DNA from: a candidate division WOR-3 bacterium
Lineage (GTDB): Bacteria; Hydrothermota; Tepidihabitantia; B3-TA06
Length of the DNA: 38,476 bases
Assembly (NCBI GenBank): GCA_965649265.1
Contig: CBFGKC010000018.1
Location: 1 to 38,476 of the forward strand
Direction of reading: 5' to 3'
In this document: positions 86 to 12,826 of the stretch, piece by piece
How positions within the stretch are numbered: position 1 is the stretch's first letter
Layout of the letters: the number at the start of each line of letters is the position of its first letter
Translations under genes and position numbers: made by a program
Notes under the pieces: generated by a model
The model's input: the letters and a program-made list of their open reading frames with translations, nothing else
What the model was told of the DNA's origin: nothing
Database searches by the model: none

Positions 86-113
86 TTGACATGCGGTCGA
101 CTTAGCTTACAAT
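86..113 (+). promoter_or_regulatory. sigma70-type promoter TTGACA-N16-TACAAT for the EIIA-CBS/permease operon
   Basis: TTGACA 86-91, TACAAT 108-113, 20 nt upstream of ATG 134. Confidence 0.75.
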
Positions 114-133
114 TTAGACCCAACAGGAATAAC

Positions 134-1036
134 ATGAAGTTAGTGAATTTAATCAAGCAGGAAAGAATTTTCTGCGGGCTCAAGGCAAGAGACCTCAAAG
201 AAGCCATAAAACTTCTCGTGCCTCTGGTTGCTTCAGATTACAGTGAAGAAAGCCAGAAGAGGATTACGGCAGAGGTCCTTGAACGCGAAAGGCTTGTTTC
301 GACGATAGTAGGAAGGGGTGTGGCTATCCCTCATGCTCGTTCGACCGAAGTCACACAATTCGTTATAGGAATCGGCATCTTCCCCGAAGGACTCGGCGAT
401 CATACGGTCGACAATGAACCCCTGAAAGTTATCTTCCTTATGCTTGAGCAGAATCGCGTGACCAAGCTTTTCATGAAAAGCCTGGGCGTAATTTCCCGGC
501 TCGTTCTCATGGACGAAAATATTGAAAAAATCGCGGCGGCCTCTTCGCCCGCAGATGTCACAAATATAATAGATGCGGCGAACCTCGACGTTGCCGAGCG
601 TCTCTCGTCAGGAGACATAGCTAGACGGGTCGAGCCGCTGCGTCTGGGCATGAATCTGAAGGACGCTGCCGATCTTTTCTTTCGCAACAATACCCACACA
701 CTTCCCGTGCTAGACGCGCAAAACGAAGTCGTAGGGATTTTACGTGCTTCCGATCTTGTGAACGCAGCGCTGCCGGAGTATGCAAAGATGATCGGTGATC
801 TGCATTTTCTTTCGGAATTTGAACCATTCGATCGCTTCCTTGAGAAAGAAGACGAAATGTTAGTTGATGCTGTGATGACGAAGAATTATTACTCGGTTGA
901 CGAGGCCGCACCCATAATAGAGGTAGCTAGCATTCTAGTTCACCACATGGAGACGGCCCTTGTCGTCAAATCAGAGGGACTCTACTGGGGAATGGTCTCC
1001 TTGAGAGATGTAATAACAAAGGTGATGAGAGTCTAG
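134..1036 (+). CDS. PTS EIIA (Ntr/Fru-type) domain fused to a CBS-domain pair
   Basis: EIIA motif 'ERERLVSTIVGRGVAIPHAR' with the phospho-His; C-terminal CBS pair ('LPVLDAQNEVVGIL', 'GMVSLRDVI'). Start moved to ATG 134 (AGGA SD) because the ORF-track TTG 86 is the -35 box. Confidence 0.85.
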   Translation: MKLVNLIKQERIFCGLKARDLKEAIKLLVPLVASDYSEESQKRITAEVLERERLVSTIVGRGVAIPHARSTEVTQFVIGIGIFPEGLGDHTVDNEPLKVIFLMLEQNRVTKLFMKSLGVISRLVLMDENIEKIAAASSPADVTNIIDAANLDVAERLSSGDIARRVEPLRLGMNLKDAADLFFRNNTHTLPVLDAQNEVVGILRASDLVNAALPEYAKMIGDLHFLSEFEPFDRFLEKEDEMLVDAVMTKNYYSVDEAAPIIEVASILVHHMETALVVKSEGLYWGMVSLRDVITKVMRV

Positions 1037-1044
1037 TCCTAAAG

Positions 1045-2328
1045 ATGTTCAATTTTCCCATAATAGCCTCGGCCGTCATCCTGATAGGAGCTTACGTTGC
1101 GATAAGCACAGAAAAGGTTCACAAGGCCATAATCGCTCTGATTGGTGCAGCGTTAGTAATGCTCCTGAAGCTCATGAGCGCTTCCGAGGCCTTTTCTGCA
1201 ATAGATTTCAACGTGATCTTCTTACTCATGGGAATGATGATTATCGTCAACATCACCAGTCACACTGGCGTATTCCAGTGGCTGGCGATAAAGGCAGCCA
1301 AGATCGCCCGCGGAAAACCCATCGCGCTTCTCATTATCTTCTCAGTGCTCACTGCTGTGATCTCCGCGTTCCTTGATAACGTCACAACAGTCCTGCTCGT
1401 CGGACCAGTGACGCTGCTTATTGCGCGGGAGCTTAAGGTAGACCCTGTTCCGTTCATGATCTCGGAGGCGCTTGCTTCGAACATCGGAGGCACCGCTACC
1501 CTCATAGGCGACCCTCCGAACATAATGATAGGCTCGACCGCTAATCTCTCCTTCATCGATTTCGGGGCCAACCTGACACCTGGCGTGCTAGTAATCCTCC
1601 TCTTCTTCTGTCTGACGCTGTGGGTGGTATTCCGCAAAAGACTTCAGACGACTCCAGAGCTTATGGCTCGCATCCAGACGCTCGACGAAAAGAAGGCAAT
1701 AACCGACAAATCCATGCTCATAAAAAGTCTCGTTGTGATAGGTGCCGTAATCGCCGCCTTTCTTGTGCACAGCGAGCTTGGTTATGAACCGGGTGAGATA
1801 GCCCTGGCTGGCGCGGCAATCCTCCTTCTCCTCAAGGGCGGCAGCCCTGAGGAAACGCTTAAAGAGGTAGACTGGACCACAATTCTCTTCTTCATCGGGC
1901 TCTTCATCGTGGTAGGCGCAACGGTCAAAGCCGGGCTAATCAACCTTCTCGCAAAGTGGCTTCTTGAACTTACAAGAGGTAACCCCATCGTGACCGGACT
2001 CGTGGTCCTCTGGGCGTCCGCCTTCCTTTCGGCTTTCATCGACAACATTCCTTACGTTGCGACTATGATACCCTTAATCCTGGCGCTCAAGGGCTCGATG
2101 GACGTAACGCCATTGTGGTGGGCGCTTTCACTCGGGGCCTGCCTTGGCGGAAACGGCACTCTCGTGGGAGCATCGGCAAACGTTGTAATCTCGGGTATCG
2201 CCGGTAAAAGCGGGTATCCCATTCATTTCCTTCGCTTCACGAAGTACGGCATGCCGATAATGATTCTTACACTCATTATTTCGAGCATCTACCTCCTTCT
2301 AAGATACTATATGCCGCTCTTGCGTTAG
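1045..2328 (+). CDS. ArsB/NhaD (IT superfamily, P-protein-like) anion/cation permease, paralog 1
   Basis: Highly hydrophobic; motifs 'SAFLDNVTTVLL', 'SNIGGTATLIGDPPNIMIG', 'SAFIDNIPYVATM', 'GACLGGNGTLVGASAN'. Confidence 0.9.
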   Translation: MFNFPIIASAVILIGAYVAISTEKVHKAIIALIGAALVMLLKLMSASEAFSAIDFNVIFLLMGMMIIVNITSHTGVFQWLAIKAAKIARGKPIALLIIFSVLTAVISAFLDNVTTVLLVGPVTLLIARELKVDPVPFMISEALASNIGGTATLIGDPPNIMIGSTANLSFIDFGANLTPGVLVILLFFCLTLWVVFRKRLQTTPELMARIQTLDEKKAITDKSMLIKSLVVIGAVIAAFLVHSELGYEPGEIALAGAAILLLLKGGSPEETLKEVDWTTILFFIGLFIVVGATVKAGLINLLAKWLLELTRGNPIVTGLVVLWASAFLSAFIDNIPYVATMIPLILALKGSMDVTPLWWALSLGACLGGNGTLVGASANVVISGIAGKSGYPIHFLRFTKYGMPIMILTLIISSIYLLLRYYMPLLR

Positions 2329-2428
2329 GCTACTGTCTAACTGAAAATCAGACAAATGACTTATTGAACGTGGCAGGGTTTATTTTAAAAAAAGCCATGA
2401 GTCGAAATAAGGAGGATATTACTTAGTA

Positions 2429-3730
2429 GTGAATCACTTCCCTTTAATAGCTTCCGCATCAATACTCGCCATAGCCTACGTCTCCTTGGGATTAGAAAAA
2501 TTGCCAAAGGCCGTCATCGCTTTGCTTGCCGCCACGGCGGTTCTGCTCCTGAAGCTCCTGACCCAGGCCGAAGCATTCGCAGCGATAGACTTCAATGTGG
2601 TTTTTCTCCTTACAGGCATGATGATTATCATCGACATTACCGGACACACGGGTATTTTTCAATGGATTGCTATCAAGGTTGCGAAGACGGTCAGGGGACA
2701 ACCTCTTCCTTTGCTGATTGTTTTCTCACTTGTTACGGCTGTTTTATCCGCGCTCCTTGACAATGTAACGACAGTCCTCCTCGTTGGTCCGGTAAGCCTT
2801 CTCATCACACGTGAACTCAGGCTCGATCCGGTTCCGTTCATGATATCGGAGGCCCTGGCCTCCAACATAGGGGGTACGGCTACCCTGGTCGGGGACCCGC
2901 CCAATATTATGATTGGTTCAGCCGCACATTTGAACTTCATGGATTTTATCGCTAATCTAGCCCCGGGTGTGATAGTAATTCTCATTGTATTCGTCGTTAC
3001 CATCTGGTTTGTGTTCCGCAAGCGCATAAGTACTTCCCCGGAACTCAGGGCAAGAGTAATGTCCATGGACGAGAAGAAGGCAATAAAGGATAAGCCGCTG
3101 CTATATAAATCTCTTGCGGTGATCGGCCTTGTTATAGCGGCTTTTCTTCTTCACGGAAGACTGGGATACGAAGCGGGCGAGATAGCCCTCGCTGGAGCAG
3201 CCGTGCTTCTTCTTCTCAAGGGAGGAAGCCCCGAGGAAACCATAAAAGAAGTCGACTGGTCCACCATTATTTTTTTCATAGGTCTCTTTATCGTGGTCGG
3301 AGCGACCGTCAAGGCGGGCCTGATCAACATATTAGCGAAAGGACTTCTCGGACTCACAAAAGGCAACCCGATAGTGACCGGGCTCGTGATTCTCTGGGCG
3401 TCAGCCTTCCTTTCGGCCTTCATCGACAATATCCCTTACGTCGCAACCATGATACCTTTGATCCTTGCGCTCAAGGGTTCGATGGACGTGACCCCCCTGT
3501 GGTGGGCACTTTCCCTGGGTGCCTGTCTCGGTGGAAACGGAACCCTGGTTGGAGCCTCGGCTAATGTCGTGCTGTCGGGCATTTCAGGAAAAAGCGGGTA
3601 CCCCATCCACTTCCTTCGTTTCACGAAATACGGGATGCCGATCATGATCCAGACGCTTTTAATATCAAGTGTCTACTTACTCCTTCGGTACTACTGGCCG
3701 CAGGTTTTAGCAATTCTCGGCTTTAACTAA
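2429..3730 (+). CDS. ArsB/NhaD family permease, paralog 2
   Basis: Same motifs; C-terminal half nearly identical in protein to paralog 1; AGGAGG SD before GTG. Confidence 0.9.
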   Translation: MNHFPLIASASILAIAYVSLGLEKLPKAVIALLAATAVLLLKLLTQAEAFAAIDFNVVFLLTGMMIIIDITGHTGIFQWIAIKVAKTVRGQPLPLLIVFSLVTAVLSALLDNVTTVLLVGPVSLLITRELRLDPVPFMISEALASNIGGTATLVGDPPNIMIGSAAHLNFMDFIANLAPGVIVILIVFVVTIWFVFRKRISTSPELRARVMSMDEKKAIKDKPLLYKSLAVIGLVIAAFLLHGRLGYEAGEIALAGAAVLLLLKGGSPEETIKEVDWSTIIFFIGLFIVVGATVKAGLINILAKGLLGLTKGNPIVTGLVILWASAFLSAFIDNIPYVATMIPLILALKGSMDVTPLWWALSLGACLGGNGTLVGASANVVLSGISGKSGYPIHFLRFTKYGMPIMIQTLLISSVYLLLRYYWPQVLAILGFN

Positions 3731-3820
3731 AGCGCTTTCCGTCAACTTCGGGATAACAAGTCCAATATTTATAACTTGATGAGTTCCATGGAATTTTAAT
3801 CGAGAGGGGTTCAAAAAGGA

Positions 3821-5152
3821 TTGATTCTGAATATAATCTTTTTAATGAACACTCAGGCGTGGATGGCGGTGGCTATATTCTGTCTCGCATACGTAGCGAT
3901 TGCCACGGAGAGGATAGACAGGACCCTGGTGGCTCTTGCAGGTGCCGCTCTAATGCTGGCTACACGGATAGTCGATCAGGAGAATGCGTTCCATCAAATA
4001 GATTTGAACGTGATATTCCTGCTTGCGGGAATGATGATAGTGGTCAGCGTCATAAAACGATCGGGGCTCTTTGAATGGATTGCCATCGTTACGGCCAAAA
4101 TGTCGGGCGGCAGGCCATTTCTTCTTTTGGTTTTGCTTTCGACAATCACGGCCGTGATTTCCGCCTTCCTCGATAACGTAACAACTGTTCTTTTCATAGC
4201 TCCTATAACCCTTCTTATTGCCACTCAACTCAAGATCAATCCCGTACCATTCATCATAAGCGAGGCACTTGCTTCAAACATAGGCGGGACTGCGACTCTG
4301 ATTGGAGATCCACCAAACATTCTAATAGGCAGTGCCGCACGCTTAAGCTTCATTGATTTTGTGAGCAATTTGATGCCGCTGGTATTGGTGGTCTTTGTTG
4401 TGTTTCTCGTCTTTTCCCGGCTGCTGTTTTCGAAGGAATTAAGCAAGGAGAAACCTCACCCTGAGATGCTCGGTATGCTCGATCCGGCAAGGGCGATAAG
4501 AGATCGTTACCTTGTATGGAAATCGCTGGCTGTTTTGGGTGTTATCCTTGTTTTCTTCACGCTTCACGATTTGCTCAAGCTCGAACCGGCAACGGTCGCC
4601 CTGGGCGGTGCGGCCCTCCTCCTCCTTCTTACGCAGCTTCCGCCTAGAAAAGAGAAGATGGACTCCCTTGAGAATATCCTCGCCGAGATTGACTGGCATA
4701 CACTTTTTTTCTTCATCGGCATGTTCATAATGATCTCGGGATTGGAGTCCACAGGAGTCATAAAGGAGCTTCTTAGCATCATCACCTCGGCGAGTGAAGG
4801 TCGGGTACTATTCCTTTCGTTAATAATTCTTTGGGGCTCGGCTTTATTGACGTTTGTCACGTCGTCCGTCCCTTTTGTTATTGCAATGCTTCCGGTAATC
4901 AAGGGACTCGCCGCTCACGGCTTGCAACCCGTTGAACCTTTGTGGTGGGCCCTTGCGCTTGGGGCATGCCTCGGAGGAAACGGTACGCTTATCGGCGCGG
5001 CCGCGAACATGGTCATTGCAGGGGTTTCGACGAAATCGGGCTACAAAATTAGCTTCTGGACCTTTACAAAAAAAGGAATGCCCATAACGATCGTCTCCCT
5101 CATTCTTTCGAGTCTATATATCTGGGTGCGATACTTTCTCCTAAAGCAATAA
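3821..5152 (+). CDS. ArsB/NhaD family permease, paralog 3 (more divergent)
   Basis: First-half motifs conserved; second 'DNIP' motif replaced by 'SSVP'; start could be TTG 3821 or ATG 3845. Confidence 0.88.
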   Translation: MILNIIFLMNTQAWMAVAIFCLAYVAIATERIDRTLVALAGAALMLATRIVDQENAFHQIDLNVIFLLAGMMIVVSVIKRSGLFEWIAIVTAKMSGGRPFLLLVLLSTITAVISAFLDNVTTVLFIAPITLLIATQLKINPVPFIISEALASNIGGTATLIGDPPNILIGSAARLSFIDFVSNLMPLVLVVFVVFLVFSRLLFSKELSKEKPHPEMLGMLDPARAIRDRYLVWKSLAVLGVILVFFTLHDLLKLEPATVALGGAALLLLLTQLPPRKEKMDSLENILAEIDWHTLFFFIGMFIMISGLESTGVIKELLSIITSASEGRVLFLSLIILWGSALLTFVTSSVPFVIAMLPVIKGLAAHGLQPVEPLWWALALGACLGGNGTLIGAAANMVIAGVSTKSGYKISFWTFTKKGMPITIVSLILSSLYIWVRYFLLKQ

Positions 5153-5240: not shown

Positions 5241-6065
5241 ATGAAAAAGATTTTAGTTTTCGCATCCCTGGCGCTGCTTGCGCTCGTTGGTTGTTTTATG
5301 AATTACACCCACAGAGAAGACCAAACAGCCACCGAAACATACAAGGCGTCTCTTTACACAAAAGTCATACTCGAGACCGAAAACGGTAAGATTGAAGCCA
5401 CAGCAGTCCCCGGCGATTCGAGCATCAAAGTCGTCCTTACAAGATGGGCAACCGGCTTCTCTAAATCCGATGCGCTTGAGCATCTAACCGACATAAAGGT
5501 TAACGTTGACGAAGACACGACGTCAAAGGTGCTGCGAATAGTAGTAAGCATACCGGACCTCACCGCGTACAGCCTGGGCTGCGACGCAGTTATCACGCTC
5601 CCGGAATCCCTCTACGTCGATCTCGAAACTTCCAACGGCAAGATAACCGCAGGCGGGCACAAGAACGGACTGAAACTTAGAACCTCAAACGGCGCGATAG
5701 AGCTTTCACAAACAGCCGGCGACGCAAGTCTCGAAACTTCCAACGGCGCCATATACGTTTATACCCATACCGGCAACATCGAGGGCGAAACTTCTAACGG
5801 GGCCATCGATGCAGATGTAATCATGCCCGTTGCCGACGGCATCTGTAAGTTCTCCTCCTCCAACGGCGCTATCGAGCTTGCCGTTCCCGATTCAGTCGGT
5901 GCGACCATATGGCTGGAAACGTCAAACGGGTCTATCACCATAAGCGGTTTTGAACTCGGCGACCACAACCCGGACAATAATATATTCGAGAGCACGATTG
6001 GCGACGAGTCTGGAACTATCGATTTGAGAACCTCGAACGGTGCAGTTACGTTTAAGAAGCTCTGA
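5241..6065 (+). CDS. DUF4097-family beta-strand-repeat (putative adhesin) lipoprotein
   Basis: Lipobox 'LVGC'; eight xT(S/E)NG-type repeats. Confidence 0.8.
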   Translation: MKKILVFASLALLALVGCFMNYTHREDQTATETYKASLYTKVILETENGKIEATAVPGDSSIKVVLTRWATGFSKSDALEHLTDIKVNVDEDTTSKVLRIVVSIPDLTAYSLGCDAVITLPESLYVDLETSNGKITAGGHKNGLKLRTSNGAIELSQTAGDASLETSNGAIYVYTHTGNIEGETSNGAIDADVIMPVADGICKFSSSNGAIELAVPDSVGATIWLETSNGSITISGFELGDHNPDNNIFESTIGDESGTIDLRTSNGAVTFKKL

Positions 6066-6100
6066 GACGCGTTAAACCGTGTAAGCAAGGAGGAGTAACA

Positions 6101-6922
6101 GTGAAAAGGTTAATTCCGGTATTGTTAATAGTCCTTATGTCTTCGTGCACACGCTATGAACACAAGGAGATAATAACTGAGAATCACAATTTCGACGCGG
6201 GCGGTATTAAGATATTTGATGTCGAGACCGGTAACGGCAATATCATTTCATCGGTAAAGAAAGGCGATTCATTGTATGTAACGCTTGACCTGTGGGCAAC
6301 CGGCAAGGACAGCGCCGATGCCGTGGCATACATAGACTCCATAAACGTCCACATAACTCCTGACACCTCAGACAGTTCGCTAAGAATATTCATAGAGCTG
6401 CCGGTGCTCGATCCAGCCGCACTGAGAACTTACGGTGCCGATGTGACAATTTTCACTCCTGAGTCCGTTGTCCTGAACCTTGAAACCTCGAACGGTGATG
6501 TTTCGGTAGGTGACCAGGAAGCCGACTTTTACCTTACTTCATCGAACGGGGATTTGAAGATCGCCAACACTAAAGGTTACGCACGTCTAAACACCTCGAA
6601 CGGGTCGGTCACGGTCTCAAAACACGAAGGAAATATTCAGGCGGTGACATCCAACGGCGATATGAATGCAAACGTGATAATGCCCAAGTCTAACGGTACG
6701 TGTTCCTTTAAAACATCCAACGGCTCGATAACGCTAGCGGTGCCTGATTCTGTCGGTGCGTCAATCTGGCTCAAGACCTCCAACGGAAAGATAACGGTTA
6801 CCGGCCTCAACCTCACGGATACCAACGACGAAGAAAACATATACCAGGCCGTAACCGGAGACGGTTCTGGAACGATTGAAGCGGAAACGTCTAACAGGGA
6901 TATTGAACTCAAAAAGCTTTAA
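6101..6922 (+). CDS. DUF4097-family beta-strand-repeat lipoprotein, paralog
   Basis: Lipobox 'MSSC'; repeated TSNG motifs; shares 'LAVPDSVGA.IWL.TSNG' and terminal 'KKL' with the upstream gene. Confidence 0.8.
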   Translation: MKRLIPVLLIVLMSSCTRYEHKEIITENHNFDAGGIKIFDVETGNGNIISSVKKGDSLYVTLDLWATGKDSADAVAYIDSINVHITPDTSDSSLRIFIELPVLDPAALRTYGADVTIFTPESVVLNLETSNGDVSVGDQEADFYLTSSNGDLKIANTKGYARLNTSNGSVTVSKHEGNIQAVTSNGDMNANVIMPKSNGTCSFKTSNGSITLAVPDSVGASIWLKTSNGKITVTGLNLTDTNDEENIYQAVTGDGSGTIEAETSNRDIELKKL

Positions 6923-7008: not shown

Positions 7009-7635
7009 ATGGATACATCGTTAATATTACGAAATGCAGGACCCGGTGATGCCCGTAAAGCCTCAGAGCTCATCTACTCGACGGGACCGCAGTCTTTCAA
7101 CCTGGTCTACGGTTCGCACGACAAGGCCCTCGCGTTGATATCGAAAATGTTTGCGTGCACTAAAAACATTTCAAGCTTCGAGTATTCGACCGTCGCCGTG
7201 ATCGATAAAACCGTCGTTGGCGTCATTGTACTTTTTGAAAAAAAAGACATTTTGGAAACACAGGCTAGAACTGGATCCATACTCCTGCAAATGGTGGGTC
7301 CCCTTTTTCTTTTACTAAGAATGCCCGTTTTCATTCGTCAATCCAGATTAAATCCTGAAGCCTGCAAAGACGAACTCTTCGTGGCCGATGTTGCCGTTTC
7401 ACCCGATGCGAGGGGGAGGGGGATAGGCAGGGCACTTATGAAGCATGCGGAAAAAATCGCTCGCGGAAAGGAACTTCCCAAATTATCTCTCGGGGTCAGC
7501 AAAGGTAACCTGCCCGCAATAGGGCTCTACAAAAACCTGGGTTATACAATTACAGAGGAGCATACAGACGAATGGTTTAAAAGACGTTACGGCTTTCCAG
7601 GCGTATTCAAGATGGTCAAGACAATAAAGTTTTGA
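7009..7635 (+). CDS. GNAT family N-acetyltransferase
   Basis: Acetyl-CoA motif A 'VAVSPDARGRGIGRALM' and motif B 'NLPAIGLYKNLGY'. Confidence 0.88.
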   Translation: MDTSLILRNAGPGDARKASELIYSTGPQSFNLVYGSHDKALALISKMFACTKNISSFEYSTVAVIDKTVVGVIVLFEKKDILETQARTGSILLQMVGPLFLLLRMPVFIRQSRLNPEACKDELFVADVAVSPDARGRGIGRALMKHAEKIARGKELPKLSLGVSKGNLPAIGLYKNLGYTITEEHTDEWFKRRYGFPGVFKMVKTIKF

Positions 7636-7697: not shown

Positions 7698-7725
7698 TTG
7701 ACAGGCTTGGAAATATTAGTACTAT
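7698..7725 (+). promoter_or_regulatory. promoter TTGACA-N16-TACTAT of the sulfonolipid-like operon
   Basis: TTGACA 7698-7703, TACTAT 7720-7725. Confidence 0.7.
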
Positions 7726-7785
7726 TGGAACTGTATAGTTTCTGGTTAAACTCATGCGCAGAACAATCGCAAAACCGGAGGATAT

Positions 7786-7974
7786 ATGGCTTCAAAAAAT
7801 AACGATATCGAAAGGGCGGCGGATGAAAGAAAATCGGTCAAGTTGCATCTGGATTGGTGGGCATTCATTGTCGCTTGCCTCTTGACTCTAGGATTGCTTA
7901 TCTGGCAGTGGCTGGGTGGAACACCAACGGTGCCTTTCAGCTCTATAATAAAATTCATGCTCCCTGGAGGCTGA
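7786..7974 (+). CDS. small single-pass membrane protein, first gene of the YeiH/cysteate operon
   Basis: GGAGG SD; one TM helix 'WWAFIVACLLTLGLLIWQWL'; stop is 1 nt before the GTG of the next gene. Confidence 0.7.
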   Translation: MASKNNDIERAADERKSVKLHLDWWAFIVACLLTLGLLIWQWLGGTPTVPFSSIIKFMLPGG

Positions 7975-7975
7975 G

Positions 7976-9073
7976 GTGACGGAAAAGAAGAAAAACGTTT
8001 GGGGTTTCATTTCCGGCTTATTGCTTCTTGTAGTCATTGGATTCGTTTCGCTTTACCTTTCGGAGCTCTTTAAGAAGGTTATACACGTTGAATGGCTTAA
8101 TGCGATTTTGGGGTCAAACGTAATTGTTGCGATTGTTCTCGGGATGCTCATCAACAACGTACTCATAGAACGCATAAGGGGTCTTGCCGATTTTCTGGCT
8201 CCAGGCCTTGAGGCTTACGAGTTTCTTCTTAAGTTGGGAATAGTTTTCCTCGGCGCACGGATTTTGATATCTGACCTTCTCAAGCTGGGCGGTCTTGGCC
8301 TGGGCATGGTCGTCGTGGAAATACTCTTCTCGATTTTCTTTGTTACCCTAATAGCCAGACTATTCAAGCTTGATGAAAAAATCGGGTCCCTTCTCTCCGT
8401 GGGAGTCGGCATATGCGGCGTATCCGCAATAATCGGAACTACAGGAGCCATAAACGCAAAAAAAGAGGAAGCCAACTACGCGATTGCAGTCATTCTGATC
8501 TTCGGTGCCGCCGCAATGATAGTTTATCCACTTATAGGTGCGCTCCTTCACATGAATCAAACCCTCTTCGGAATCTGGTCAGGCCTCGCGGTAGATAACA
8601 CCGCCGAAGCCATCGCGACAGGGCAGCTTTACGATCAGGTAAGAAACGCATCCGGTGCCCTGCAGGCGGCAACCATCGCAAAAATGTGCCGCAACGCTCT
8701 TATGGGATTCGTAATCCTCGGTTTCGCCATTTACTATGCGTCAAAGGGCATGACCAGGCAGATTAATAACAAGGGTCGATTTCTTTGGCAGAAATTTCCC
8801 AAGTTCGTCCTTGGGTTCGTCTTATTCGCGGTGCTCGCTTCGCTTGGAGTGTTCGGCGCCCAGAAATCGCCCATGCTTGTATCCTTAAAATCTCTCGAAA
8901 ACTGGGCTTTTCTTTTTACTTTTGCCGGAGTAGGGCTCAGAACAAGGTTTTCGGATATGGCCAAAACGGGTTGGAAACCTTTTGTCGTAGGTATAGCGGC
9001 GGAGACGAGCGTTGCCCTCGTGACATTAATTATGGTTCTTCTGCTGGGTGGTCTTTTGACCCTGAAAACATAG
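7976..9073 (+). CDS. yeiH: YeiH / putative sulfate exporter (PSE) family membrane protein
   Basis: 'LLKLGIVFLGARI', 'GVGICGVSAI', 'ATIAKMCRNALMG', 'FPKFVLGF', 'FAGVGLRT' are typical of YeiH/UPF0324. Confidence 0.85.
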   Translation: MTEKKKNVWGFISGLLLLVVIGFVSLYLSELFKKVIHVEWLNAILGSNVIVAIVLGMLINNVLIERIRGLADFLAPGLEAYEFLLKLGIVFLGARILISDLLKLGGLGLGMVVVEILFSIFFVTLIARLFKLDEKIGSLLSVGVGICGVSAIIGTTGAINAKKEEANYAIAVILIFGAAAMIVYPLIGALLHMNQTLFGIWSGLAVDNTAEAIATGQLYDQVRNASGALQAATIAKMCRNALMGFVILGFAIYYASKGMTRQINNKGRFLWQKFPKFVLGFVLFAVLASLGVFGAQKSPMLVSLKSLENWAFLFTFAGVGLRTRFSDMAKTGWKPFVVGIAAETSVALVTLIMVLLLGGLLTLKT

Positions 9074-9079
9074 GGAAAA

Positions 9080-10387
9080 ATGAGTACTGAATTCAAACCT
9101 ACTTCTTACAGACTTAAATGCCTTGAATGCAGTAAGGTTTTCCAAAGTGACGACCACATCCTCTCGTGCGATGAAAACCACAATCCTTCATTCCTTCGGG
9201 CAGACTATAAGCAAAAAAAATTATCTCTGAACGGACACGCTGACGGGATGTTCAAATTTGGTGATTGGCTTCCGCTGAATCGTAATATAGTCAACAACTC
9301 CACGCCGGTGGTATTCCAGAGCGAGCGCCTGGCGGACGAATTGGGACTCAAGAACCTTTGGATTGTTTTTTCCGGATACTGGCCTGAGCGGGGAGCCGAC
9401 ATGCGCACCTGCACGTTCAAGGAACTCGAGGCGCCTGCGGTGTGCTCTCGACTGGGTAATACCTCAAAAACCCTCGTCGTAGCCTCCGCGGGAAACACGG
9501 CACGCGCTTTTGCCGAGATATGTTCCATAAACGACATCCAGCTGCTTCTGGTTGTTCCGGAGATCGGACTCGATTCGCTCTGGTCAACAAAGGAATTTTC
9601 TGACTCGGTCCGCCTGGTCGTGGTCGACGCCGGTGCGGATTATCTGGACGCCATAAACCTGGCGGAGACGATCTCGAAGCTTCCGGGGTATCTCTCCGAG
9701 GGCGGGGCAAAAAACGTCGCCCGCAGGGACGGCATGGGGACGACGGTTCTTGCTGCGGCCGTTGAATCCGGCAGGATACCGGATCATTACTTCCAGGCTG
9801 TGGGTTCGGGCACTGGCGGTATAGCGGCCTGGGAAGCGGCAATGCGCTTGGAAGCTGACGGCAGCTTCGGGAATAACGCAATGACGCTTCACCTTGCCCA
9901 GAACCATCCCTTTACTCCCATGACGGATGCCTGGCATGCAGGTTCAAGGATCATCCGCGATCTTGACGAACAGGAGTCGAAAACACGCATATCGAAGATT
10001 TCTTCGCACGTTCTGTCGAACCGCAAACCCCCGTATTCAATTAAAGGCGGGGTCTACGATGCTCTTGCAGCCACTAATGGACACATGTATTCTGTAACGA
10101 ATGAAGAAGCCTTGAAAGCTTCCATACTTTTTGAGGAGAAGGAGGGTGAAGGATACGGAGGAATAGATATTGATCCTGCGGCTGCGGTTGCTGTGGCATC
10201 AATGATACAATCCGTCGAGATGAAAAAAATCACCAGTGAAGAGATGGTTCTTTTGAATATTACCGGTGGTGGCAGAAAGCGCATGTTCAGTGAACACGAA
10301 ATCAACAAGCTTTATCCCTCCATAAGAATCGGCAGGAATGAAATCAACCCTGAATCGGTAAAGAGACTATTCAAAAAGGAGAATTGA
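9080..10387 (+). CDS. cysteate synthase (PLP, threonine-synthase fold; phosphoserine + sulfite to L-cysteate)
   Basis: Signature 'FSGYWPERGADMRTCTFKELEA' (PLP Lys), 'VASAGNTARAF', 'EGGAKNVARRDGMGT', 'YFQAVGSGTGGIAAWEA', 'VLSNRKPPY'. Confidence 0.88.
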   Translation: MSTEFKPTSYRLKCLECSKVFQSDDHILSCDENHNPSFLRADYKQKKLSLNGHADGMFKFGDWLPLNRNIVNNSTPVVFQSERLADELGLKNLWIVFSGYWPERGADMRTCTFKELEAPAVCSRLGNTSKTLVVASAGNTARAFAEICSINDIQLLLVVPEIGLDSLWSTKEFSDSVRLVVVDAGADYLDAINLAETISKLPGYLSEGGAKNVARRDGMGTTVLAAAVESGRIPDHYFQAVGSGTGGIAAWEAAMRLEADGSFGNNAMTLHLAQNHPFTPMTDAWHAGSRIIRDLDEQESKTRISKISSHVLSNRKPPYSIKGGVYDALAATNGHMYSVTNEEALKASILFEEKEGEGYGGIDIDPAAAVAVASMIQSVEMKKITSEEMVLLNITGGGRKRMFSEHEINKLYPSIRIGRNEINPESVKRLFKKEN

Positions 10388-10393
10388 GATCGT

Positions 10394-11602
10394 ATGAAAG
10401 ACCTGTTTACGAAATGCGGTGAAGAGGGAGGATATTTTTCCTACTTCCGCATGCAGCGTGACCGCTACTTTGCCTTGCCGTTGCTCGAAGGCATGCCCGG
10501 TCCGAGAATGAGGTTCCAGGGCAGGGAAGTAATACAGTGGGCCATAAACAATTATCTGGGACTCGCCTCGAGACCCGAGCTCATCGAAACCGCGCGAGAG
10601 GCGGCTGCCCGTTGGGGTGTTGGCTCACCCATGGGAGCCCGGTTCATGACCGGTAACACCGAGCGCCACGTCGAACTCGAACGCCGCCTTGCCCACTACT
10701 CCGGAAAGCAAAGCGCAATACTCTTCAACTACGGCTATCTCGGCGTACTCGGCACGGTTACTTCTTTAATTGGCAAGGATGACGTCATTGTCATCGATAA
10801 ACTGGCGCACGCTTCAATGATGGACGCAGCCTTCTCGACCCGCCAGTTCATCCCGTTTCAACATAACGACATGACGAGTCTCGAGCGCGCGCTGAAACGC
10901 GCAACGAGAAATCGTGAAGGCGGTGTGCTCGTTATGGCTGAGGGCGTCTACGGGATGACCGGAGATCTTGCGGACCTGCCGGGAATAGTGGAACTAAAGA
11001 AAAAATACGGCGCAAGGCTCTATGTGGACGATGCGCACGGGTTCGGAGTGATGGGTGAAGAAGGCAAGGGGACCGGAGTTCATCTGGGGGTACAAGACGA
11101 AATCGACATTTATTTCGGGACCTTTGCAAAGGCCTTTGCGGCCATAGGAGGTTTCAGTTCGGCACCGGACGATGTTATCGAATACATCCGGTACAACGCC
11201 CGCACCCAGATTTTCGCAAAGTCGCTTCCCATGGTCGTCGTCGAGGTACTGATCAAAGCCATGGACATCGTTGAGACGGAACCGGCAATATTCGCGACTC
11301 TCTGGGAGAACACGCGAAAGCTACAGTCGGGTCTCAGGGAGCTCGGGTACAACCTCGGCAACACCCAGTCACCGGTCACACCCGTCTACGTGCCGGCCAA
11401 CGACGTGGAAACGGGAATGAAGTTCATCCACAAGATGCGCGACGAGAAAGGCATCTTCATCTCCGGAGTCATGTATCCCGTGGTTCCCAAAGGCGTAGTG
11501 CTTTGCAGAATGATACCTACGGCAAGCCACACCGACGAGGACATAGATATTACCCTGAAGGCCTTCCGCGATGTTCGCGACGAGATGAAGCTGACGTTGT
11601 AA
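10394..11602 (+). CDS. alpha-oxoamine synthase family enzyme, probable cysteate-C-fatty acyltransferase (CapB/SulA-like)
   Basis: AOS motifs 'NNYLGL', 'DDAHG', 'GTFAK' (PLP Lys246); 'QIFAKSLP' (Lys276) in place of the FSAS/FSTA of SPT/AONS; directly follows cysteate synthase. Confidence 0.8.
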   Translation: MKDLFTKCGEEGGYFSYFRMQRDRYFALPLLEGMPGPRMRFQGREVIQWAINNYLGLASRPELIETAREAAARWGVGSPMGARFMTGNTERHVELERRLAHYSGKQSAILFNYGYLGVLGTVTSLIGKDDVIVIDKLAHASMMDAAFSTRQFIPFQHNDMTSLERALKRATRNREGGVLVMAEGVYGMTGDLADLPGIVELKKKYGARLYVDDAHGFGVMGEEGKGTGVHLGVQDEIDIYFGTFAKAFAAIGGFSSAPDDVIEYIRYNARTQIFAKSLPMVVVEVLIKAMDIVETEPAIFATLWENTRKLQSGLRELGYNLGNTQSPVTPVYVPANDVETGMKFIHKMRDEKGIFISGVMYPVVPKGVVLCRMIPTASHTDEDIDITLKAFRDVRDEMKLTL

Positions 11603-12798: not shown

Positions 12799-12826
12799 AG
12801 GATATAATCCACAAGGCTCTTGTCAA
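12799..12826 (-). promoter_or_regulatory. promoter TTGACA-N16-TATCCT for the VOC gene
   Basis: Minus strand TTGACA 12826-12821, TATCCT 12804-12799. Confidence 0.7.

Follow-up and report, generated by a model that had tools for sequence, protein, structure and literature searches.

A probable sulfonolipid operon with a YeiH-family transporter in a candidate division WOR-3 bacterium

The 38,476-nucleotide (nt) stretch considered here, called the window, is contig C18 in the genome of a candidate division WOR-3 bacterium (G000; 2.74 Mb, 96.4% complete). It carries four closely spaced genes, the last two of which encode a cysteate synthase and a cysteate fatty acyltransferase (CFAT). The operon is judged, with a probability of about 0.8, to make the sulfonated long-chain base from which capnine-type sulfonolipids are built, the lipid product being deduced from the genes. 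Sulfonolipids belong to the outer membranes of Bacteroidota, are connected with gliding, choanoflagellate development and host immune signalling, and are used as Bacteroidota markers.

In the proposed pathway, the cysteate synthase would convert sulfite and O-phospho-L-serine to L-cysteate. The translationally close CFAT would then bind cysteate on its pyridoxal phosphate (PLP; lysine K246), decarboxylate it and condense it with a fatty acyl thioester to yield 3-ketocapnine; for the CFAT known as SulA, the acyl donor is an acyl carrier protein (ACP) thioester. A YeiH-family transporter, preceded by a small membrane protein, would move sulfite across the inner membrane, either importing it as a substrate or keeping it at a safe level. 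Reduction to capnine and N-acylation would be carried out by genes found elsewhere in the genome, and a convergent vicinal oxygen chelate (VOC) protein would serve as an accessory enzyme of the same pathway. We infer from the genes and their neighbours which substrates are used, what is made, which way sulfite is transported and what the VOC protein, a GNAT acyltransferase and the small protein do.

Cysteate synthase and the acyltransferase

A preliminary description of the region, made from the DNA letters alone, had named the third gene a cysteate synthase, and profile and structure searches bear this out. The product passes the TIGR03844 equivalog cut-off (523.1 vs 324.9 bits), with threonine synthase as the next family at 63 bits, and it matches the solved structure 9k3c, titled 'Cysteate synthase', with 409 bits over residues 4–414. 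The gene is present as a single copy in the genome. While the protein resembles the cysteate synthases of Bacteroidota (CapA/Cys), methanogens and 9K3C in its whole-length alignment, it differs from them in being encoded in an operon with a YeiH-family transporter and a CFAT, in a genome where PF01507, ATP sulfurylase and sulfite reductase found no match.

The fourth gene encodes an alpha-oxoamine synthase (AOS) of the class I/II aminotransferase fold (PF00155, 156.8 bits). It had been assigned to the CFAT/CapB/SulA type, and the scores, a phylogeny and a diagnostic lysine all agree with that assignment. When searched against all PDB sequences, the best matches were 28eh, titled 'Cysteate-C-fatty acyltransferase' (420.9 bits), and 7u7h (378.8 bits), which we take to be SulA of Alistipes finegoldii. 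The best serine palmitoyltransferase (SPT) in the PDB scored 263.7 bits and Kbl approximately 220 bits. No NCBIfam equivalog cut-off is reached, the closest being TIGR01825 (336.8 vs 535.4 bits).

The PLP lysine, K246, and a second lysine, K276 (in the motif QIFAKSLP), are both present and lie 30 residues apart. K276 is found in all 61 CFAT-clade rows of the alignment, and the four outgroups carry A, N, N and T at that position. The preliminary description had put FSAS or FSTA in place of the second lysine in related enzymes. This is correct for the SPT-like paralog of the same genome, which has FSAS; however, the corresponding motif is FSN(S/T) in Kbl and YSTS in E. coli BioF. In SulA, Lys281 replaces an Ala of Spt, 30 residues past the PLP lysine Lys251, and a K281A variant is inactive yet still binds cysteate; the authors assign the lysine a structural role (PMC9304779; papers are cited here from excerpts). 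In the cysteate complex of the Capnocytophaga ochracea enzyme, the sulfonate is bonded to Asn52, His139 and Lys250, and Lys280 is supplied by the other protomer (PMC13692747). Thus, the second lysine stands as a diagnostic of CFATs, but the sulfonate-binding role first suggested for it does not appear in the excerpts of PMC9304779 or PMC13692747. The window protein retains 12 of the 15 residues named for the PLP–cysteate adduct shell of the C. ochracea enzyme (PMC13692747), as mapped by hand from the printed PDB alignment. The exceptions are F113Y, C141S and M277I, and the Tyr and Ile at positions 113 and 277 are also the commonest residues in Bacteroidota rows.

For the phylogeny, a 'quick' IQ-TREE run was performed on 65 rows, consisting of 61 CFAT-like proteins and four outgroups (the SPT-like and Kbl paralogs of the genome, E. 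coli Kbl and E. coli BioF). The CFAT-like rows were the window protein, nine from loci in other genomes of the bacterial family to which the window belongs (L095–L103), 28 selected from 80 CFAT-centred genome loci, and 23 database proteins (P0014–P0116). Among the 120 database matches listed, the seven with an organism name were taken, plus 16 at every sixth rank. The characterised CFATs are represented in the tree by Bacteroidota-titled loci that stand in for them. A single branch (SH-aLRT 99) sets all 61 CFAT-like rows apart from the outgroups. There are three subclades: one from Stahlbacteria, WOR-3 and TA06 (19 rows, including the window protein); one from Bacteroidota with one Balneolaceae and one 'Chlorobi' row (19 rows); and one with Chloroflexota, spirochaetes, Legionellaceae and metagenome proteins (23 rows). 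The tree does not resolve the branching order among the three.

The window CFAT aligns over its full length with CapB of C. ochracea (28EH) and SulA of A. finegoldii, matches both of their lysines and shares their clade. In contrast, its identity to Bacteroidota-titled CFAT loci is approximately 46–50% (tblastn), it belongs to a deep Stahlbacteria/WOR-3/TA06 subclade of its own and is not nested within Bacteroidota, and it has Ser instead of Cys141. The SPTs of Bacteroidota and Sphingobacterium (3A2B, 8GUH) are alike in fold type and reaction type (264 bits); however, SPT has an Ala at the K276 position (PMC9304779), and the SPT-like paralog with its FSAS motif falls in the outgroup.

Since the genome also holds this SPT-like paralog (NF047600, 533 bits, under the cut-off of 640) and a Kbl paralog (TIGR01822, 571 bits, over the cut-off), the CFAT is a third, distinct AOS paralog. 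The SPT-like gene (G000:C13:39010-40194, minus strand; locus L121) is the second long-chain-base-type enzyme of the genome, and the organism may also make sphingolipid-like bases. Nine neighbouring open reading frames (ORFs), scanned within approximately 6 kb on each side of this gene, had no Pfam match.

Operon layout and expression signals

The coordinates of the operon and its neighbours are given in Table 1. The four ORFs are co-directional and separated by 1, 6 and 6 nt, just as the preliminary description had it. The promoter-like site upstream of them matches 10 of 12 consensus positions and lies 60 nt ahead of the first ORF. Across 6 kb, four such sites were counted against 5.6 +/- 2.4 in shuffles; since this is not above the shuffled count, the intergenic position is the sole support for this promoter-like site. 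The TTGACA promoters noted earlier were located, upstream of the operon and of the VOC gene, but are no more frequent in the region than in shuffled sequence. Three of the four starts have a Shine-Dalgarno-like site. GGAGGA ends 3 nt ahead of the ATG at 7786, GGAGG stands 5 nt ahead of the GTG at 7976 and AAGGAG 12 nt ahead of the ATG at 10394, while the start at 9080 is preceded by a weak ribosome site (GGGA).

Table 1. Position of the operon genes, their neighbours and promoter-like sites in the window (aa, amino acids).
Feature	Coordinates	Strand	Basis
Cysteate synthase, CapA/Cys type (O-phospho-L-serine + sulfite -> L-cysteate); 435 aa	9080..10387	+	TIGR03844, PDB 9k3c
Cysteate fatty acyltransferase, CFAT/CapB/SulA type; PLP lysine K246, diagnostic lysine K276; 402 aa	10394..11602	+	PDB scores, tree, K276
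YeiH-family / putative sulfate exporter family membrane transporter; GTG start; 365 aa	7976..9073	+	PF03601, 228 bits
Small protein with one hydrophobic stretch; stop 1 nt before the YeiH start; 62 aa	7786..7974	+	ORF call
Two-domain VOC (glyoxalase-fold) protein, convergent to the operon; 353 aa	11689..12750	-	PF00903
GNAT acyltransferase, possible member of the system	7009..7635	+	PF00583; directly upstream of the operon
Promoter-like site TTGACA-16-TACTAT	7698..7725	+	10/12 consensus positions; 60 nt upstream of the first ORF
Promoter-like site TTGACA-16-TATCCT	12799..12826	-	Upstream of the VOC gene; consensus match only

Distribution and gene context

The host had been described as apparently lying outside Bacteroidota, and the names of its relatives confirm this. 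Proteins of its family-mates are identical to records named Candidatus Stahlbacteria bacterium, candidate division TA06 bacterium B3_TA06 and candidate division WOR-3 bacterium, and NCBI places Stahlbacteria in the phylum Candidatus Stahliibacteriota. The phylum was sampled with 272 genomes, 11 from the family of the window and 261 others. With presence thresholds of E<=1e-60 for cysteate synthase and E<=1e-110 for CFAT, each gene occurs in all 11 family genomes (two of the cysteate synthase matches are cut by contig ends) and in none of the 261 others. This distribution points to a single acquisition of both genes at the base of the family. In excerpts of the literature on sulfonolipids and cysteate synthase, including PMC11334938 and PMC12619533, there is no report of CFAT or cysteate synthase genes from spirochaetes, Stahlbacteria or WOR-3. 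Loose homologs are mentioned in two surveys of the human microbiome, 'across 13 phyla' in one (PMC11211663) and 'across 21 phyla' in the other (PMC11525784).

The family comprises four genera, g1 to g4; g1 is the genus of the window (G000 and G100) and the other three account for nine genomes. In every family locus examined, the cysteate synthase and CFAT genes are adjacent or nearly so. The usual gene order is a PTS-EIIA/CBS-domain protein, one to three CitMHS-type transporters, a DUF4097 protein, a GNAT, in some cases YeiH, cysteate synthase, CFAT and the convergent two-domain VOC gene.

The 80 CFAT-centred genome loci (L001–L080), with flanks of up to 7 kb and some shorter, extend the comparison to other phyla. 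Among the nine non-Bacteroidota loci (L001–L009), six have a cysteate synthase directly upstream of CFAT, two of these from Stahlbacteria and four from spirochaetes. The remaining loci, L010–L080, have titles from Bacteroidota lineages except for one Balneolaceae and one 'Chlorobi'. While the window CFAT begins 6 nt after the cysteate synthase, none of these 71 loci has a cysteate synthase near CFAT within its stored flanks. Two Spirochaetia loci present fuller sulfonolipid-type operons: L006 (1901-8281) has a short-chain dehydrogenase/reductase (SDR), CysD, CysN/C, cysteate synthase and CFAT; L008 (2005-10805) has an SDR, CysN/C, cysteate synthase, CFAT, a PlsC-like acyltransferase and a VOC protein. 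In the Legionellaceae loci L004 (6983-11148) and L007, a CFAT-clade gene precedes one for an AMP-binding (fatty acyl-AMP ligase-like) enzyme and one for a fusion of an AMP-C-terminal domain, ACP and ComA (phosphosulfolactate synthase). These loci have no cysteate synthase nearby, which suggests a different route to a sulfonated substrate. From their gene content, the contexts of the non-Bacteroidota loci support the view that CFAT-clade enzymes there may also use a sulfonated amino acid.

Further upstream in the window, positions 86-5152 encode a PTS-EIIA/CBS-domain protein and, after it, a tandem array of three CitMHS/ArsB-type anion transporter paralogs, of which the last also matches Na_sulph_symp. 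The block is syntenic with the sulfonolipid genes in most of the family, and a role in anion uptake, perhaps of sulfate or sulfite, is conceivable. Next, at 5241-6922, comes a tandem pair of paralogs for lipoprotein-like products of 274 and 273 aa, with a match to DUF4097 ('toastrack') in the second; one copy is kept at this place across the family.

The YeiH-family transporter and the source of sulfite

The second gene of the operon was initially labelled YeiH. The label is appropriate for the wider PF03601 family but not for the narrower subfamily TIGR00698, for which the cut-off is not reached (122.8 vs 232.6 bits); the protein is thus a divergent member of the wider family. It has its Pfam family in common with YeiH of Salmonella and E. 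coli, although no YeiE-type regulator was seen adjoining the window gene. The link to sulfite that the preliminary description drew has experimental backing, and is reasonable, since sulfite resistance in Salmonella depends mainly on YeiH (PMC12880088). The window protein most likely handles sulfite as well, and as its gene belongs to an operon for a biosynthesis that consumes sulfite, import may be its role instead of export.

The 62-aa ORF ahead of the transporter has no Pfam or NCBIfam match. It is likely to be a real gene since an ORF with 87% identity occupies the equivalent position in the same-genus genome G100. It is absent in genus g2, where the GNAT gene abuts YeiH. The GNAT gene itself occurs upstream of YeiH or cysteate synthase in eight of the 11 family genomes and overlaps or abuts YeiH in G094 and G098. 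It is fast-evolving, with 51% identity to its G100 counterpart and weaker relatives elsewhere in the phylum. An assignment of the GNAT as the N-acyltransferase of the pathway was rejected, as its PDB matches are to generic GNATs only and are confined to the acetyl-CoA-binding motif.

Sulfite reductase (PF01077) and ATP sulfurylase (PF01747) are absent from all 11 family genomes. A CysH-like gene (approximately 140 bits) is found in all nine genomes of genera g2 to g4; in genus g1, there is none in G000 and only a 24-bit match in G100. The genome of the window instead has a trio of genes for an ABC-ATPase, a HypB-like GTPase and a PF04060 Fe-S protein (G000:C10:5618-7805), followed by a 128-aa half-size TauE. 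This site, in the region G000:C10:4190-11848, lies between an Asx-tRNA synthetase gene and genes for an S41 peptidase, thymidylate kinase and inositol-1-phosphate synthase. At the same syntenic site, three sister-genus genomes (loci L132, L133 and L134) have a CysH-like gene, with TauE in G094 and G102 and with DUF2061 in G099. This in-place replacement, seen between three sister-genus genomes and one genus, is the best evidence that the CysH-like module and the ATPase-GTPase-FeS trio may do the same job. Within the phylum, the GTPase of the trio is limited to both genomes of genus g1 and two from another family, neither of which has cysteate synthase. A phylum-wide association between the trio and cysteate synthase was considered and rejected, as the GTPase is in two of the 11 genomes with cysteate synthase and two of the 261 without it.

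The VOC protein and later steps

The VOC protein is a probable accessory enzyme of the pathway. Its gene adjoins CFAT in 10 of the 11 family genomes and lies on another contig in G099. It is also found beside CFAT in spirochaete and Saprospiraceae loci, making it a recurrent CFAT neighbour in three phyla. All 11 family genomes and none of the 261 others in the phylum encode it. Since it is in only one of five sampled CFAT-bearing Bacteroidota genomes, it is considered an accessory and not a core part.

A single-sequence search of the PDB with the VOC protein gave no match; the matches from profile and fold searches were limited to generic ones of the glyoxalase, MMCE, FosB and HPPD types. There are 37 database relatives at E<=1e-10. 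The predicted model (pLDDT 93.1, pTM 0.92) has a terminal helix at residues 340–349 in a conserved basic C-terminal segment. Human GLOD4 (3ZI1) and maize glyoxalase I (5D7Z) are similar in having two VOC domains (Foldseek E ~1e-15 to 1e-12; TM 0.54–0.71); however, identity is only 12–16%, and the window protein is distinguished by the conserved basic C-terminal helix and by its lipid-type gene neighbours. As a chemically reasonable guess, the VOC protein could be a metal-dependent enzyme that epimerises or isomerises 3-ketocapnine, which is enolisable.

The VOC alignment was also used to find 80 metagenome loci (L136–L215), 75 of which have a called VOC ORF and 58 of these at least 900 bp upstream of it. 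An SDR gene lies directly upstream of VOC on the same strand in 32 of the 75 loci, and directly downstream in two. This SDR is the same type as that at the head of the spirochaete operons (34–43% identity). A PlsC-like acyltransferase is found in 24 loci, 23 times together with the SDR; an ApbA/PanE-type reductase in four; an AOS gene in six; and none of these partners in 30. The six AOS genes are all CFAT-level matches (46–58% identity, 371–516 bits). From these associations, we infer that the acyltransferase, SDR and VOC protein may act downstream of CFAT.

In several of the loci, the PlsC-like acyltransferase/SDR/VOC trio comes after the housekeeping genes for Prs, L25, Pth and an S4-domain protein. 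One locus (L176:418-10816) joins sulfonolipid-type genes to gliding and type IX secretion system (T9SS) genes, in the order CDP-alcohol phosphatidyltransferase, an 85-aa ORF, CFAT, a PALP enzyme, SDR, VOC, PorP/SprF, an FGE-sulfatase-like protein, GldL and GldM. The PALP enzyme is only 23% identical to the cysteate synthase of the window.

The preliminary description noted that no ketoreductase or N-acyltransferase is encoded in the operon and took the later steps to be encoded elsewhere or to be non-canonical. In the pathway proposed here, they would be encoded elsewhere. The lack of a ketoreductase is not unusual, as Bacteroidota, too, have more than one ketocapnine reductase, all promiscuous and located apart from cfat and Cys (PMC11211663). 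A GNAT gene lies directly upstream of the operon. Queried with SDRs that are linked to CFAT or VOC in other organisms, the genome gave only weak best relatives of 30–31% identity. One of its proteins (594 aa; G000:C4:138803-140587, L119:511-2295) combines an extended SDR of the epimerase/dehydratase type with a classical SDR; the C-terminal half provides the match, and a methyltransferase gene comes after it. The ApbA/PanE-type reductase beside the closest outside VOC relatives (L137, L198) was also tried as a candidate and has no match in the genome (tblastn E<=1e-5).

Apart from the GNAT gene at 7009-7635, the N-acyltransferase candidate is a PlsC-like protein of 419 aa (G000:C9:91903-93159) that is 28% identical to the L008 acyltransferase encoded between CFAT and VOC. 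Full-length orthologs of this C9 acyltransferase are present in all 11 family genomes and are confined to these in the phylum; five CFAT-bearing Bacteroidota genomes gave no match at E<=1e-10. The c2-type acyltransferase of the metagenome trio has no BLAST similarity to it (E<=1e-3), so the two represent different lineages.

On the same contig, a protein (G000:C9:87172-88584, L122:3172-4581) has a Por_Secre_tail domain for T9SS C-terminal sorting and is a type IX secretion cargo outside Bacteroidota. Both T9SS and sulfonolipids have links with the outer membrane and with gliding in Bacteroidota.

Alternative explanations

Several observations weigh against a sulfonolipid operon of the kind proposed. 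PF01507 (CysH, CysD), PF01077 (sulfite reductase) and PF01747 (ATP sulfurylase) have no match in the genome, although control genomes were matched. YeiH is an optional part, present in four of the 11 family genomes, each time directly upstream of cysteate synthase, and by analogy the sulfite resistance it confers in Salmonella would fit export better than supply (PMC12880088). At position 141, the CFAT has a Ser like the outgroups, and all 19 Bacteroidota rows have a Cys. The best relative of the spirochaete and VOC-linked SDR is 31% identical and lies inside the 594-aa double-SDR protein. Lastly, a distribution limited to one family is also expected of any family-specific gene, and the genomes concerned are kin and not independent.

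The alternative that survives best retains the pathway as far as 3-ketocapnine and differs in the end product, which would be not an N-acyl capnine of the Bacteroidota type but a sulfonated lipid modified through the VOC protein and the lineage-specific PlsC-like acyltransferase. Both proteins are encoded in every family genome. Of the five sampled Bacteroidota genomes with CFAT, one has VOC and none the acyltransferase, and the 28%-identical relative of the latter sits between CFAT and VOC in the spirochaete locus L008. On the other hand, the fold of VOC is a generic glyoxalase one, such a distribution is to be expected of any gene specific to the family, and the acyltransferase is not encoded near the operon in the genome of the window. 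A modified end product is possible but doubtful.

A wider proposal is offered tentatively, with the odds against it as a whole: one Stahlbacteria family may have acquired a self-contained sulfonolipid system that includes undescribed parts, with the VOC protein as a missing accessory enzyme, sulfite solely for the lipid, interchangeable supply modules and YeiH as an extra sulfite gate. The modules would be a CysH-like gene with TauE in three genera and, in its place in genus g1, the ATPase-GTPase-FeS trio with the half-size TauE. It is because the family is without sulfite reductase that sulfite would be made or taken up only for the lipid in such a system.

A second alternative is that the AOS enzyme condenses another amino acid (serine, glycine, alanine, or another sulfonated or acidic one) to a sphingoid or other aminolipid base, with adjacency to cysteate synthase but no channelling between the two. 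The failure to reach an NCBIfam equivalog cut-off, the outgroup-like Ser141, and the published mutagenesis, which could not define a specificity determinant for cysteate (PMC13692747), leave some room for this. Against it, the enzyme falls in the CFAT clade and has K276, its scores to the solved CFATs are far higher than to SPT, the genome already has a separate SPT-like paralog and Kbl, and the gene follows cysteate synthase after 6 nt in a pairing that recurs in spirochaetes. Use of a different amino acid is quite improbable.

It is highly improbable that the cysteate is meant for coenzyme M, for osmolytes of the taurine or isethionate type, or for sulfite detoxification with YeiH, with the acyltransferase drawing a side stream only: cysteate synthase was first known from coenzyme M synthesis in methanogens and YeiH is a sulfite-resistance factor in Salmonella (PMC12880088), but the alpha subunit of sulfopyruvate decarboxylase (TIGR03845) has no match in the 96%-complete genome, which makes the coenzyme M route unlikely, as the preliminary description had judged, and every sampled genome of the phylum with cysteate synthase also encodes CFAT, the two genes being adjacent or nearly so in each family locus examined.

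Significance

Both enzymes are orthologous to ones already known; the novelty lies in the lineage, in their arrangement as an operon with YeiH and in the accessory genes. With the operon assigned to a sulfonated long-chain base, a lipid pathway credited to Bacteroidota would be extended to another phylum, and the CFAT–cysteate synthase pairing is also present in spirochaete loci, with a related pairing in those of Legionellaceae. The tight non-Bacteroidota operons place candidates for the reductase, the N-acyltransferase, the VOC step and the sulfite source beside known genes. Since clear orthologs of CFAT and cysteate synthase are encoded in Stahlbacteria/WOR-3, sulfonolipids in anoxic sediments need not be derived from Bacteroidota.

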